Source: an uncultured Clostridium sp. (GTDB lineage Bacteria; Bacillota_I; Bacilli_A; RF39; UBA660). Taken from it: a stretch of DNA of 64,000 bases. This document shows positions 36,112 through 51,393 of the stretch, in pieces. Below the pieces are notes generated by a model that saw only the letters and a list, made by a program, of their open reading frames with translations, was not told where the DNA came from and ran no database searches. The stretch's first letter is position 1. Each line of letters begins with the position of its first letter. The stretch is from NCBI GenBank assembly GCA_946414595.1, contig CAMKPE010000003.1:6860-70859 (forward strand), read 5' to 3'. A program made the position numbers and the translations under genes.

Positions 36112-36747
36112 ATGGGTGATGGATGGACAGGAATTAATATAGGTTCAGTTGTAAAAGAATTAGATACTTTCAAAGGAAGAATGAAAGAGATTTTAACTAA
36201 TTATACTGATGCATTTGATTTGTTTAATGATGAATTATATCGTTTATGGGCTTCAGAAAATGCAGTTAGTTTTAATGATTATATTTATAAAATGGCATGG
36301 ATTAAGTATAGTATAGATTACACTGGAAATGACATTTTAGTATCTGCTGCAAATGCTGCTAAGATAATGGCACAACATAATGGTGCATCGTTGACTTATG
36401 ATGCTCGAAGATATATGTATTCTATGGGACCACACTATAAAAAATTAGTAGATTCACAAAATGGTATTAGAGGTATGAATATTCCTATGGCAAAGTATTC
36501 ATTAGACACATTTTTAGAATCTGTTTCCAATGTAATTAACATGCTAAATGATTTACCAATGAATTTCTCATTGTTGGATCCTAATGGAGAATTACTAACA
36601 CAATACCAATCAATGGTTAAGAAGTTGATTGAATCAATTCAAAGTAGAATAGAAGAATCTAAATCTAAATTGAATGAGGCTTTTGAAACAGAACAATTAA
36701 AAGTTACAATGGGAAAAGAACAAGCAGAACAAACACTTGCAGGATAA
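36112..36747 (+). CDS. DGWTG-family protein P1 (core only, 211 aa)
   Basis: MGDGWTGIN N-terminus, LWASENAVSFN, AAKIMAQHNGA, GMNIPMAK, LLDPNGELL, C-terminal MGKEQAEQTL; AGGAGG SD; paralog of seven other ORFs in the window. Confidence 0.9.
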   Translation: MGDGWTGINIGSVVKELDTFKGRMKEILTNYTDAFDLFNDELYRLWASENAVSFNDYIYKMAWIKYSIDYTGNDILVSAANAAKIMAQHNGASLTYDARRYMYSMGPHYKKLVDSQNGIRGMNIPMAKYSLDTFLESVSNVINMLNDLPMNFSLLDPNGELLTQYQSMVKKLIESIQSRIEESKSKLNEAFETEQLKVTMGKEQAEQTLAG

Positions 36748-36757
36748 TAAAATATGT

Positions 36758-36786
36758 AAAACAACTCAAAATGAGTAGTTTTTGTT
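36758..36786 (+). terminator. rho-independent terminator after P1
   Basis: AAAACAACTCA / TGAGTAGTTTT stem (one mismatch) plus T-run; near-identical to the P2 terminator. Confidence 0.65.
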
Positions 36787-36806
36787 ATGTATATTATAAA
36801 ATGTTG

Positions 36807-36815
36807 TGGTAAAAT
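36807..36815 (+). promoter_or_regulatory. P2 extended -10 element
   Basis: TG-G-TAAAAT; the -35 is weak (TGTATA/ATGTAT). Confidence 0.4.
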
Positions 36816-36847
36816 GTAATTAGATAATATTATAGGAGGTATATAAT

Positions 36848-37534
36848 ATGAGTGATGGATGGACTGGATTAAATATTGAAGCGGTAAAAAAAGAACTAGA
36901 TGATTTCGAACAAAAAATGTATGAAATAGCATCTAATTATCAAAGTGCATATGATTTATTTGAAGATGAATTGAAAAAATTGTGGGCATCTCCAAGAGCG
37001 GTTGACTTTAACACCAATCTCTTACACTTAGAAAGATATGGCAGAAAAATTAAGTATGATTGTGATGATGTTTTACGTTCTGCATCAAATGCTGCAAAAA
37101 TAATGGCGCAACATAATGGAGCAACATTTGATTATGATTACCATGGATATAAAACTATTGGTGAAAGAGAAGCTGAGACAGGACAAAAAATTAACGTCGG
37201 ATATGTTACTTGGGATGAGTCATTTGGCCCTCTTAAACAATCAATAAATGGTGTTGAGGGAATGAATATACCTTTGGTAAAGTATTCACTTGACTGTTTT
37301 CAAGGATCAGCGCAAGCAGTTATTAATGATTTAAATGCTTTACCAATTAATTTTTCTTTGATTGACCCAAACGGAGAATTGGTTTCTTTATATCGTTCAA
37401 TTGTAACTAAAAGAGCTAGCGAACTTCAAGAAGAAATTAACGATGCTGTGGCAACTGTATCTGCAGCACTTGAAGAAGAAACATTACAAGTTAGATTGGG
37501 AAAAGAACAAGCAGAGCAAACACTTTCAGCTTAA
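36848..37534 (+). CDS. DGWTG-family protein P2 (core with ~17-aa central insertion, 228 aa)
   Basis: MSDGWTGLN, LWASPRAVDFN, AAKIMAQHNGA, GMNIPLVK, LIDPNGEL, EEETLQVRLGKEQAEQTL. Confidence 0.9.
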   Translation: MSDGWTGLNIEAVKKELDDFEQKMYEIASNYQSAYDLFEDELKKLWASPRAVDFNTNLLHLERYGRKIKYDCDDVLRSASNAAKIMAQHNGATFDYDYHGYKTIGEREAETGQKINVGYVTWDESFGPLKQSINGVEGMNIPLVKYSLDCFQGSAQAVINDLNALPINFSLIDPNGELVSLYRSIVTKRASELQEEINDAVATVSAALEEETLQVRLGKEQAEQTLSA

Positions 37535-37535
37535 T

Positions 37536-37566
37536 AAAACAACTCAATTTGAGTTGTTTTTATTTT
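37536..37566 (+). terminator. rho-independent terminator after P2
   Basis: Perfect 11-bp stem AAAACAACTCA / TGAGTTGTTTT, loop ATT, T-rich tail. Confidence 0.8.
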
Positions 37567-37567
37567 G

Positions 37568-37595
37568 TTTACAAGATAATAATATATGATAAAAT
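37568..37595 (+). promoter_or_regulatory. P3 promoter (extended -10)
   Basis: TTTACA (37568-37573), 16-nt spacer, TG-A-TAAAAT (37587-37595). Confidence 0.6.
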
Positions 37596-37624
37596 ATAAT
37601 TATATAATAAAGGAGACTATAAAT

Positions 37625-49543: not shown

Positions 49544-49551
49544 AGAAAAAG

Positions 49552-49579
49552 AAACAATCCTTAGGGATTGTTTTTTTTA
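49552..49579 (+). terminator. rho-independent terminator after P6
   Basis: AACAATCC / GGATTGTT stem, loop TTAG, T8. Confidence 0.75.
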
Positions 49580-49585
49580 TATATA

Positions 49586-49631
49586 TTTACTTTTTTTATT
49601 CAATGTGAGATAATTACATTAGATTAATCTA
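49586..49631 (+). promoter_or_regulatory. P7 promoter and 12-bp perfect palindrome
   Basis: TTTACT (49586-49591), 17 nt, GATAAT (49609-49614), then TAGATTAATCTA (49620-49631). Confidence 0.55.
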
Positions 49632-49652
49632 GAAAGTAGAGGATGATTGATT

Positions 49653-50381
49653 ATGGCAGATGGATGGACAGGAATAAATGTCGGAGAAGTAACATCACAA
49701 TTAAACAACTTTTGGGAACAAATGGGTACATTAGTACAATCATATGTAGATTCATTTGATTTATTTAATACTGAATTATTTAAAACATGGGGATCAGATA
49801 ATGCGGTAAAATTTAATCCAATCTTAATGGGATTAAGTGAAATAAAAAAAGTATTAGCTGATTTACTAAATAAGATAATAACAGCAGCAACAGAAGCAGC
49901 AAAGGCAATGGCACAACACAATGGATCAGTATTTGATTTATTATTTAATCCAAAGAATGTACAAGTTGATTATGTACCATTAAAAGAAGAAATAAATGGA
50001 GTAAAAGGAATGAACATACCACTAGCTAAATTAGCAGTAGATACATTCAATTCAACAGTAAAAGGAATAATAGATGGATTATTAACATTACCATTACAAT
50101 TTGGATTATATGATCCAGCTCAAGAAATCCTAACTCAATATAAGAATATGGTAACAACAGCAGCAGGATGGGTATCAAATGCAGTAAAAGATGCAGTGGA
50201 ATGGTTAAATGGAATCTTTGAAGATGAAACATTACAAATTGAAGTTGGAAAAGAAGCGGCAGAAGGAATACTTCGCGGAGTTGCAGCTGGAAAGTTTGGT
50301 GGACACCTTCCATTTTATGATGCAGTAGTAGGTGATCTTCCAGAAACACTTCCACCTATTGGAACAACAGGACATAACTAA
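49653..50381 (+). CDS. DGWTG-family protein P7 (core plus ~35-aa tail, 242 aa)
   Basis: ATG 49653 after a GAGGA SD. MADGWTGIN, TWGSDNAVKFN, GMNIPLAK, LYDPAQE, EDETLQIEVGKEAAEG; close paralog of P8. Confidence 0.9.
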   Translation: MADGWTGINVGEVTSQLNNFWEQMGTLVQSYVDSFDLFNTELFKTWGSDNAVKFNPILMGLSEIKKVLADLLNKIITAATEAAKAMAQHNGSVFDLLFNPKNVQVDYVPLKEEINGVKGMNIPLAKLAVDTFNSTVKGIIDGLLTLPLQFGLYDPAQEILTQYKNMVTTAAGWVSNAVKDAVEWLNGIFEDETLQIEVGKEAAEGILRGVAAGKFGGHLPFYDAVVGDLPETLPPIGTTGHN

Positions 50382-50387
50382 TAAAAA

Positions 50388-50412
50388 AATAGAGAGCTTA
50401 GCTCTTTTTTTT
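50388..50412 (+). terminator. rho-independent terminator after P7
   Basis: AGAGC / GCTCT stem with extending pairs, loop TTA, T-run. Confidence 0.6.
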
Positions 50413-50414
50413 AT

Positions 50415-50480
50415 TTGCAATAATGTACATTAAGGTATATAATTAAAATGTATTAATCTAGAAAGTAGAGGAGGATAGAT
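50415..50480 (+). promoter_or_regulatory. P8 promoter and decayed leader element
   Basis: TTGCAA (50415-50420), 17 nt, TATAAT (50438-50443). ATCTAG (50456-50461), SD GAGGAGG (50468-50474), TAGAT (50476-50480). Confidence 0.55.
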
Positions 50481-50481
50481 T

Positions 50482-51393
50482 ATGGCAGACGGATGGACAG
50501 GGATAAATGTCGAAGAAGTAAAAGCACAATTAAACAACTTTTGGGAACAAATGGGTTCACTAGCACAATCATATGTAGATGCATTTGATTTATTTAATAC
50601 TGAATTATTTAAAACATGGGGATCAGATAACGCAGTAAAATTTAATACAAACTTATTATCATTAAGCGAAATAAAAAGAGTATTATATGAAGTACAAAAT
50701 AAAGTAATAACAGCTGCATCAGAAGCTGCAAAATTTATGGCAGAACATAATGGATCAGTATTTGATTTTGTATTTGGACCACAAATGGTATCAGCAGATT
50801 ATAAACCATTACAAGAAGAAATAAATGGAGTAAAAGGAATGAATATACCTCTTGCTAAACTAGCAGTAGATACATTCGATACAACAGTAAAAGGAATATT
50901 AAATGCATTATTAGCATTACCACTTGGATTTGGATTATATGACCCAGCACAAGAATTATTAAATCAATATAAGAATATGGTAACAACAACAGCACAATGG
51001 GTATCAGATTCAGTACAAGATGCTTTAAATTGGGTAAGAGGAATCTTTGAAGATGAAACATTACAAATTGAAGTTGGTAAGGCAGAAGCTGAAGAAGAAC
51101 TTACTGTAAATCCTACAACAGGTATTGCACCTTCTGGAATAGACGTATTTGGTTGGCTTGGACAAGGTTCGACACCTCATTCTATGAGCGGAACAGGTTC
51201 TAATGGATCAAGTAATCCAGGAACATATACTGATTCAAGAATCTTAACAACTGATAGAAATCCAGATGGTAGCTACTATGTAGGAAATAACCAAGCTTCT
51301 CAAGGAGTAGCAGCTGCAACAACTGATGCAGCAAAAAATAATTCAGATGCATATGCTGATATACTTGGTTGGACAGGTTCTTGGTTTAATTAA
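50482..51393 (+). CDS. DGWTG-family protein P8 (core plus ~95-aa low-complexity tail, 303 aa)
   Basis: MADGWTGIN, TWGSDNAVKFN, GMNIPLAK, LYDPAQEL, EDETLQIEVGKAEAEEEL, then an NPTT linker and a Gly/Ser/Thr/Asn-rich tail ending ILGWTGSWFN. Confidence 0.9.
   Translation: MADGWTGINVEEVKAQLNNFWEQMGSLAQSYVDAFDLFNTELFKTWGSDNAVKFNTNLLSLSEIKRVLYEVQNKVITAASEAAKFMAEHNGSVFDFVFGPQMVSADYKPLQEEINGVKGMNIPLAKLAVDTFDTTVKGILNALLALPLGFGLYDPAQELLNQYKNMVTTTAQWVSDSVQDALNWVRGIFEDETLQIEVGKAEAEEELTVNPTTGIAPSGIDVFGWLGQGSTPHSMSGTGSNGSSNPGTYTDSRILTTDRNPDGSYYVGNNQASQGVAAATTDAAKNNSDAYADILGWTGSWFN

Follow-up and report, generated by a model that had tools for sequence, protein, structure and literature searches.

A putative type VII-secreted carrier family of helical proteins, encoded by two strain-variable gene arrays in an uncultured low-G+C member of the Bacilli

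Substrate recognition by type VIIb secretion systems (T7SSb) is so far understood through two groups of proteins, WXG100 and LXG, and a C-terminal export arm is known for other type VII (T7) substrates. T7 substrates do not carry signal peptides, and a site directly downstream of essC is typical for the genes of T7SSb substrates, others being located at distal hotspots; known LXG toxins additionally need helical partner proteins (PMC10765036). Here, eight plus-strand open reading frames (ORFs) are described, which have in common a core of about 210 amino acids (aa) and form two four-gene arrays in a 64-kb stretch of DNA (the window) from contig CAMKPE010000003.1 of an uncultured rumen bacterium (Clostridium sp.). 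Our preferred reading, held with modest confidence, is that they represent T7SSb substrates and carrier domains of a new family, from uncultured low-G+C Bacilli, which has been amplified here into two strain-variable arrays of monocistronic cassettes. It is preferred because members of the family adjoin essC on another contig (L087), because in one of the eight proteins (copy 5) the core is joined to a domain that follows a membrane anchor or lipoprotein signal in other proteins, and because about 10% of the family representatives carry variable, carrier-like C-terminal tails. The same three observations support the original prediction, made from the sequence of the window, which had proposed exported effectors or toxin carriers.

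The eight ORFs are all present where they had been predicted, in a window with a G+C content of 25-31% throughout. Numbered along the plus strand, copies 1 to 4 constitute array 1 and copies 5 to 8 array 2. Copy 1 (36112-36747; 211 aa, identical to the family representative P0130), copy 2 (36848-37534; 228 aa, with a 17-residue insertion in the loop ahead of the GMNIP motif), copy 4 (38871-39515; 214 aa, the most divergent one) and copy 6 (48917-49543; 208 aa) consist of the core only. The other four extend beyond it. In copy 3 (37625-38731; 368 aa), the core (37625-38260) is followed by a tail of about 155 aa (38261-38728), and in copy 5 (47423-48817; 464 aa) the core (47423-48052) precedes a P/T/E/D-rich linker and a folded tail domain of about 185 aa (approximately 48263-48814). 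Copy 7 (49653-50381; 242 aa) bears a G/P-rich tail of about 35 aa, and copy 8 (50482-51393; 303 aa) combines its core (50482-51111) with a low-complexity, S/G/T/N-rich tail of about 95 aa that ends in GWTGSWFN. The longest ORFs of copies 3, 4 and 7 begin upstream, at 37586, 38757 and 49647; the starts at 37625, 38871 and 49653 are considered correct because they are aligned with a repeated AGGAGG-N8-ATG segment and with the M-x-D-G/A-W-T-G N-terminus.

Alignment of the eight products with MAFFT reveals 36 invariant columns in the first 205 residues or so, including M1, D3, W5, T6, G7, W46, S48, A51, N90 and G91, the G121-M-N-I-P125 stretch, K128, D156, P157 and E160. Pairwise identity of the cores is 31-53% for most pairs and 76% between copies 7 and 8, in agreement with the earlier estimate of roughly one third for most pairs and a close relationship for the last two. 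The core motifs listed at that stage are found as well, with small exceptions: copy 6 has LS..F where the other copies have LP..F, and the EETLQ motif deviates in copies 1 and 4. The mean Kyte-Doolittle hydropathy over 19 residues (KD19) exceeds 1.45 in none of the eight cores, which are therefore held to contain neither a transmembrane helix nor a signal peptide, as had been proposed.

No named family could be assigned, as the original prediction had anticipated. None of the copies has a significant match in Pfam or NCBIfam, PADLOC gives no match at E<=0.01, and nothing significant is found in PHROGs (best E 2e-4, to tape-measure families, for one copy only). Copy 1 has a weak Pfam match to DUF5344 (Lap3), which remains below the cut-off (E 0.003). 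Searching the PDB by sequence, with profiles from alignments of 12 (A2) and 67 (A3) family sequences, returns only designed helical proteins at E>0.02. A word-indexed search of 5.8 billion proteins retrieves eight relatives. The profile search of the core that had been suggested as a check was run as an exhaustive hidden Markov model (HMM) search of 1.84 billion metagenomic cluster representatives (50% identity); it retrieves 391 representatives at E<=1e-3, including 290 at E<=1e-10, again without any named family. Among the best 150 of these 391, the median length is 217 aa, with 134 proteins of 200-240 aa and 15 longer than 240 aa, so about 90% have no tail. The family match usually starts within residues 1-5 in these 150, W-x-S-x-x-A is present in 145, and a hydrophobic residue followed by T-G occurs within the first 16 residues of 123. 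In the 67-sequence alignment, M1, W46 and A51 are invariant, and T6, G7, S48, A82, A87, G116, G119, M120, D154 and E192 are at least 90% conserved.

A metagenome scan detects relatives on only three short contigs, from one assembly, and no relative is found among the GTDB genome representatives (a set from which the source genome is absent), in 2.9 million viral contigs, or in 50,697 phage records (tblastn) and 72,556 plasmids. The proposal of a lineage-specific family thus holds for the two arrays, which the closest genomes lack, but does not extend to the family as a whole, given its 391 representatives in metagenomes. On sequence grounds, these eight genes represent a hitherto unnamed family of predicted helical proteins of about 215 residues.

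The AlphaFold2 model of the core, based on the 12-sequence alignment, has a predicted local distance difference test score (pLDDT) of 89 and a predicted template modelling score (pTM) of 0.84. Its predicted helices span residues 10-45, 55-89, 122-144 and 158-209, and residues 1-5 are disordered. In the model, W46 of the W-x-S-x-x-A-x-x-F motif sits in the turn of the first helical hairpin, the G-x-x-G-M-N-I-P segment forms a structured loop ahead of helix 3, and the L-P-x-x-F-x-L-Y-D-P-x-G-E segment joins helices 3 and 4. The combined AlphaFold and Foldseek run, another suggested check, yields a confident helical core without a significant fold match in the PDB or in BFVD, the latter containing no match at E<=0.001.

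Most of the representatives longer than 240 aa attach unrelated C-terminal tails to the same core. P0139 differs in having an N-terminal extension rather than a C-terminal tail, and P0214 carries a tail of about 290 aa with a GFSRG motif. Tails are of low complexity or proline-rich in copy 8, P0003 and P0005. The tail of copy 3, which recurs in P0145 and P0146 at 35-38% identity, contains a glycine-zipper-like motif (SENW..NAS..EGxxGxxxGxG), and no other part of the eight copies is as hydrophobic (KD19 1.44). No family tail matches a known toxin domain. By analogy with LXG proteins, a constant N-terminal helical module joined to interchangeable C-terminal modules is the architecture expected of a trafficking domain.

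For the tail domain of copy 5 (KPIIYLYPE...EREA.EFI.YWLPKL...VEWGG), more than 7,800 homologues with 60-74% identity were retrieved. Of the best 120, nearly all carry a strongly hydrophobic segment (KD19 > 2) or a lipoprotein signal ahead of the domain; the 11 that were read either start with a basic or short stretch, followed by the hydrophobic segment, or contain a lipobox. Since an anchor or lipoprotein signal is present in nearly all homologues, domains of this type are considered to be membrane-anchored, and they are presumably extracytoplasmic in these proteins. In copy 5, it is the family core that occupies the anchor position, joined to the domain by the P/T/E/D-rich linker. The domain is modelled by AlphaFold2 with a pLDDT of 89.5, and has no fold match in the PDB (Foldseek) and no Pfam family; it appears as a very widespread, unannotated domain of Bacillota.

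A separate observation concerns the ends of the tails, which are rich in W and F in copy 3 (38705-38728), copy 8 (51367-51390), P0003, P0005, P0132, P0145 and P0146, with sequences such as EWAGNWLW, LGWTGSWFN, GNLWNSIF, GNLFW, EQLFWND and PEWFNKNNN. The tails are homologous within two groups (copy 3/P0145/P0146 and P0003/P0005) and otherwise unrelated, yet all of them end in this manner, and the C-terminal motif of copy 8 echoes the N-terminal GWTG. Such an end may constitute a C-terminal signal, or a motif binding to the wall or the membrane.

The link with type VII secretion is provided by contig L087. There, P0236 and P0164 (210 and 212 aa) have their genes directly downstream of the 3' 957 codons of essC, on the same strand, with a single 83-aa gene (2868-3119) in between. 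This essC scores 794 bits against TIGR03928 (T7_EssCb_Firm; cut-off 778) and contains two FtsK/SpoIIIE stretches. By eye, the 83-aa product resembles the ubiquitin-like YukD/EsaB (alternating hydrophobic residues, NGIELIIL at the end), an assignment that Pfam, NCBIfam and PDB searches did not confirm. The family also shows some traits of T7SSb substrates, being helical in the AlphaFold2 model and having neither a Sec/Tat signal peptide nor a transmembrane segment (the KD19 of the cores peaks at 1.4 or less).

Several results weigh against a family of T7SSb substrates. The essC adjacency is found on a single contig, i.e., at one of the seven sites examined. No secretion genes lie near the two window sites or those of L084, L085, L089 and L090, where the neighbours are housekeeping genes, and the 64-kb window contains no T7SS component. 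On L087 itself, the 83-aa gene has no match in Pfam, NCBIfam or the PDB sequences. Beside the tailed copies, there are no small Lap/WXG100-like partner genes or immunity-like genes. Pfam LXG matches neither the eight copies at E<=1 nor the 12 members of the smaller alignment at E<=10, and WXG100 (PF06013/TIGR03930) is matched in neither Pfam nor NCBIfam, with Pfam negative even at E<=10. Comparison of the family with a seven-sequence WXG100 alignment by hhalign gives a probability of 24%, with the tryptophans out of register; this set comprised S. aureus EsxA (100% identical to 2VS0), two sequences from PDB alignments, the N-terminus of a protein from L014 (see below), and ESAT-6, CFP-10 and YukE. 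The 67-sequence alignment reaches 1% against eight N-termini annotated as 'T7SS effector LXG polymorphic toxin' from Bacillaceae plasmids, a narrow test that covers one subfamily. Finally, the core resembles nothing in the PDB or BFVD beyond generic helical bundles (TM ~0.2-0.4 with Foldseek). By analogy, the family may work like LXG and WXG100 proteins, with no detected homology to either. The PE/PPE-style family that the original prediction had offered as an alternative is retained as an analogy only, as a case of multicopy type VII substrates, and there is no sequence relationship: neither PE (PF00934) nor PPE (PF00823) is matched in Pfam, and the host belongs to the low-G+C Bacilli.

The L014 protein deserves mention in its own right. 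On this metagenome-assembled genome (MAG), in which GpmI, the product of a gene located between the two window arrays, has a counterpart of 75% identity, positions 11150-12190 encode a protein of 346 aa, the N-terminus of which (SSSWKGDSY) matches WXG100 below threshold (PF06013 E 1.5e-5, TIGR03930 E 1e-5) and the C-terminal domain of which has no assignment. The next gene encodes a 452-aa protein, the N-terminal part of which is hydrophobic by reading. The 346-aa protein looks like a T7-type polymorphic effector, and hints, weakly, that the lineage uses T7-type substrates.

Each of the eight genes appears to be a self-contained cassette, made of a promoter, a ribosome-binding site, the gene and a terminator. 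An AGGAGG ribosome-binding site is present at every gene, within the repeated AGGAGG-N8-ATG segment. Conserved promoter-like sites (TTTACA-16/17-TAAAAT or GATAAT) are found 5' of copies 1, 3, 4, 5, 6, 7 and 8, and terminator-like hairpins 3' of telA and of copies 1, 2, 5, 6, 7 and 8, array 2 containing 11 terminator-like sites for 1.2 expected. The gaps between neighbouring copies (about 90-140 nucleotides, nt) contain only promoter and terminator sequence. In array 1, on the plus strand, the telA terminator (36022-36043) is followed by the promoter-like site of copy 1 (36052-36079; TTTACA-16-TAAAAT with an upstream TG), and the upstream block of this copy recurs 5' of copy 3 (83% identity) and copy 2 (65%). 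The hairpin after copy 1, an inverted repeat at 36758-36782, and the weaker block ahead of copy 2 together extend over 36758-36830. Next come the terminator of copy 2 (37536-37560), the promoter-like site of copy 3 (37568-37595) and that of copy 4 (38796-38824). In array 2, also on the plus strand, the terminator of the preceding gene at 46398-47327 (47326-47345) and the promoter-like site of copy 5 (47352-47380) are followed by the pairs formed by the terminator of one copy and the promoter-like site of the next, at 48816-48872 (copies 5 and 6), 49547-49614 (copies 6 and 7) and 50391-50443 (copies 7 and 8). The 58-nt block ahead of copy 5 is 91% identical to the block ahead of copy 6, and a bidirectional terminator (51416-51440, not assigned to a strand) is shared by copy 8 and the convergent DUF308 gene.

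With their own promoter-like, AGGAGG and terminator sites, the genes look expressed. The gene-wide ratio of non-synonymous to synonymous substitution rates (dN/dS) among the paralogues is 0.36-0.59, copies 7 and 8 giving 0.59. This indicates purifying to relaxed selection and no gene-wide positive selection, contrary to the diversifying pressure that had been proposed. A reading as pseudogene remnants was rejected, since the ORFs are intact, possess their own promoter, ribosome-binding site and terminator, and have dN/dS values below 1.

The closest genomes, as judged by GpmI, are those of uncultured rumen and gut Bacilli, namely the sheep-rumen MAG RGIG6726 (91% identity), RUG 'Erysipelotrichaceae' MAGs and 'Candidatus Coprovivens'; the closed genome of one relative measures 1.31 Mb. 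The closest genome (L004) has its genes in the same order: VWA/SBP, XpaC-like, the 33671 gene, TelA, the homologue of the 39580 gene and an AAA ATPase, followed by a DUF4143 ATPase, GpmI, DinB, the 46398 gene, DUF308 (minus strand) and GH94. The encoded proteins are 77-96% identical, with one exception, the 39580 homologue (45%). Both arrays are missing from L004, and the family HMM detects no member in the six-frame ORFs of 80 gpmI loci from other genomes, so the arrays are interpreted as two insertions into a conserved backbone. The empty L004 sites contain no attachment-site-like repeats and no gene remnants, and the arrays themselves have neither an integrase nor attachment-site-like flanking repeats.

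Mapping of the gene neighbourhood, also suggested beforehand, thus gives a conserved backbone without arrays in L004, and it further points to turnover between strains. Contig L001 matches the region of copy 8 at 99% identity and carries an orthologue of this copy. Between the 3' portion of copy 2 and nucleotide 15 of copy 3, contig L003 and the window share 80% DNA identity; the identity then jumps to 99.5% from 38755 onward, including the orthologue of copy 4. From this jump, L003 is taken to represent a strain without the copy 3 cassette of about 1.1 kb (approximately 37640-38754), and the junction of the gap falls in the conserved 5' segment. By analogy, such strain-variable islands, with both arrays absent from L004 and copy 3 from L003, would be typical of T7 substrates. 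Two adjacent members are also found at L085, L087, L089 and L003 (in L089 and L003, the contig ends within the upstream copy). Identity between adjacent copies amounts to 43-57%, versus 20-36% with members elsewhere; likewise, the eight window copies are 30-74% identical mutually, versus 20-31% to the members of these four contigs. As adjacent copies are closest to each other, the arrays are considered to grow by local tandem duplication rather than by the pairing of two ancient subfamilies, and a model with ancient A and B partners, of the EsxA/EsxB type, was rejected on the same ground.

Among the other explanations, export or surface exposure by a route other than the T7SS, as a strain-variable repertoire resembling the variable-antigen families of small-genome Bacilli, is regarded as unlikely. 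It would agree with the copy 5 fusion, which implies export, with the P/T/S/G-rich tails, which resemble extracellular linkers, with an array content that varies between strains, with an own promoter for each gene and with a window devoid of T7SS genes. It fits poorly with the lack of a signal peptide, lipobox or transmembrane anchor, with essC as the only secretion machinery beside any member, and with dN/dS values below 1; phase-variation repeats were not seen on reading the promoter blocks either, although no dedicated simple-repeat scan was made. An intracellular role, the proteins being helical-bundle adaptors, chaperones or regulators with incidental tail fusions and a fortuitous essC neighbour, is likewise improbable. 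By our own estimate, which assumes one essC per 1,000-2,000 genes or so, the chance of lying within two genes of essC is only about 1% over seven sites; moreover, the copy 5 domain, which other proteins place outside the membrane, would have no function inside the cytoplasm, and a constant N-terminal domain combined with polymorphic C-terminal tails is what marks a trafficking domain. In favour of such a role, the core is soluble, helical and without an export signal, the majority of members are tail-less, most loci are surrounded by housekeeping genes, and Foldseek indicates a weak resemblance to ferritin/Dps-like four-helix bundles.

It is quite unlikely that the tail-less copies are non-secreted export factors of a T7SS (adaptors or chaperones like Lap or EsaE) which serve the tailed copies and are not themselves substrates. 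Both arrays do interleave tailed and tail-less copies, LXG toxins need helical partner proteins (PMC10765036), and the sub-threshold match of copy 1 to DUF5344 (Lap3) points in the same direction. Nevertheless, partners and carriers would here be of one fold and one family, unlike Lap and LXG, most loci (L085, L087, L089) only contain tail-less members, and adjacent copies are recent local duplicates (43-57% identical) and not two old partner subfamilies. An origin as phage or mobile-element cargo, for example as tape-measure-like or other structural proteins, has a very low probability. Its basis would be the weak PHROGs tape-measure matches, of a kind typically given by helical low-complexity sequence, the ISL3 transposase adjoining the L087 pair, and the insertion of the arrays relative to the nearest relatives; the family is, however, absent from the viral, phage and plasmid collections searched, has no fold match in BFVD, and its arrays are free of integrases and attachment-site-like flanking repeats. 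Across Pfam, NCBIfam, PHROGs, the PDB and BFVD, no significant match to a named housekeeping or phage structural family was found.

For a family of T7SSb substrates and carriers, the following mechanism is proposed. The core would fold in the cytoplasm, its first two long helices forming a hairpin with the W-x-S-x-x-A-x-x-F turn, as predicted with high confidence. This domain, which has no Sec signal, would be recognised by the EssC ATPase and exported in the folded state, as the gene adjacency on one contig suggests. Copies without a tail would either leave the cell as small helical proteins or serve as partners for the tailed ones, which would use the core as a carrier in the manner of LXG toxins. 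From the domain architecture, the cargo would be, in copy 5, a domain presented outside the membrane by other proteins, in copy 3, a glycine-zipper-like and possibly membrane-active module, and in copy 8, a low-complexity tail. A speculative candidate for the recognition element is the near-invariant, disordered N-terminus M-x-D-G-W-T-G, of which a hydrophobic residue and T-G are kept family-wide. The arrays would expand by local tandem duplication and change by recombination across the conserved 5' ends, a change illustrated by the loss or gain of copy 3. A more far-reaching version, which we regard as doubtful, would place the family alongside WXG100 and LXG as the third major class among T7SSb substrates, restricted to gut and rumen Bacilli that are uncultured and have small genomes, and relying on an N-terminal M-x-D-G-W-T-G signal instead of a C-terminal export arm. 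The genome may also be devoid of any T7SS, the family then using an undescribed export route that is independent of signal peptides.

If the T7SSb reading is true, the rules of EssC recognition would be widened by a third family of helical carriers, unrelated in sequence to the other two and distinguished by its N-terminal motif. This family would also help to find effectors in the uncultured Bacilli of rumen and gut, for which, to our knowledge, nothing is known about interbacterial or host interactions. For several unannotated cargo modules, including the copy 5 domain, it would suggest both a probable site outside the cell and a way of delivery. Should the link with the T7SS fail, an unexplained, strongly conserved and locally amplifying gene family would still be left.

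Some neighbours of the arrays were also considered. The gene at 39580-40128 (plus strand) occupies the variable slot of array 1 and encodes 182 aa with one hydrophobic segment (KD19 1.68); its link with the family is uncertain. Its counterpart in L004 is 45% identical, versus 93-94% for the flanking genes, and it is absent from L005 and L008. It has no family match in Pfam, NCBIfam or PADLOC and one weak match in PHROGs (E 0.005), and may be either an orphan gene of the immunity type or nothing more than cargo of the island. The AAA ATPase at 40183-41754, adjoining array 1, has an N-terminal region of about 250 aa without assignment and scores below the cut-offs of SpoVK (255 bits), CbbX (226) and the T7SS ATPase EccA (197). 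Its proximity to the array is probably coincidental because it is conserved in relatives without arrays; a functional link of the arrays to telA or to this ATPase was rejected, as both are kept, in the same order, in such relatives. The 309-aa protein encoded at 46398-47327 contains an HEFNH (HExxH) motif, has no Pfam or NCBIfam family, and is 58-87% identical across related MAGs, always just ahead of the array 2 slot. At the empty array 2 site of L004, there is an unrelated small minus-strand ORF (14930-15367), lipoprotein-like by eye, so this slot is considered to be variable in its own right.

Elsewhere in the window, RNase R (370-2466) lies just upstream of smpB (2476-2910). A small ORF (2943-3401) separates smpB from a tmRNA gene (3478-3855; tag peptide GNKIKNAFAALFNRNAVAFA), which is located about 570 nt downstream of it. 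Downstream of array 2, positions 52757-60466 encode a protein of 2,569 aa, in which several hydrophobic stretches are visible by eye at the N-terminus, together with glucoamylase-like, GH94 supersandwich and GH94 catalytic domains, an architecture like that of cyclic beta-1,2-glucan synthases. It is 70-93% identical in relatives, and is an unusual cargo for genomes of about 1.3 Mb.

Among known systems, TelE-type glycine-zipper membrane toxins (PMC10434224) resemble the family at the motif level only, through the G-x-x-G-x-x-x-G-x-G of the comparatively hydrophobic copy 3 tail, and differ in that no immunity gene lies directly downstream of copy 3. EspB and PE25/PPE41 of mycobacteria are alike by analogy only: they are multigene helical T7 substrate families of lineage-specific size, with a four-helix bundle as secreted unit, a W-containing turn and C-terminal extensions on some members, but they belong to the actinobacterial T7SSa and not to the T7SSb of Bacillota, share no sequence similarity with the family, and no YxxxD/E motif is evident after helix 2 of the latter. 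Many Esx proteins contain a W-x-G-x-x-A-x-x-F motif, to which the W-x-S-x-x-A-x-x-F of the family bears a resemblance only. Like the WXG100/Esx proteins (PF06013; EsxA, ESAT-6/CFP-10), which are T7SS substrates, the family members are small, multicopy and often encoded in adjacent pairs, with a helical hairpin and a tryptophan in its turn, followed by A..F; in contrast, they are twice as long, with two further helices and a serine for the glycine of the motif, and neither hhalign (24%, out of register) nor Pfam/NCBIfam relates them. A further comparison concerns the LXG toxins (PF04740; B. subtilis YobL/YxiD, S. intermedius TelA-D, S. aureus EsaD/TspA). The family departs from these by the lack of a detectable sequence relationship (no Pfam match; hhalign 1%), by its 90% or so of tail-less members, by tailed copies that stand without Lap1/Lap2-type partners (DUF3130/DUF3958/DUF5344/DUF5082) or immunity genes alongside, by the hydrophobic-T-G motif kept at its extreme N-terminus, and by a predicted four-helix topology with a structured 30-residue loop (G-x-x-G-M-N). 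Nevertheless, it shares with them a predicted all-helical N-terminal domain of about 200 residues without a signal peptide and a small conserved motif at the turn of a helical hairpin; some members also resemble them in carrying unrelated C-terminal modules, and the genes in lying directly after essC, as seen on L087, or at distal, strain-variable sites.

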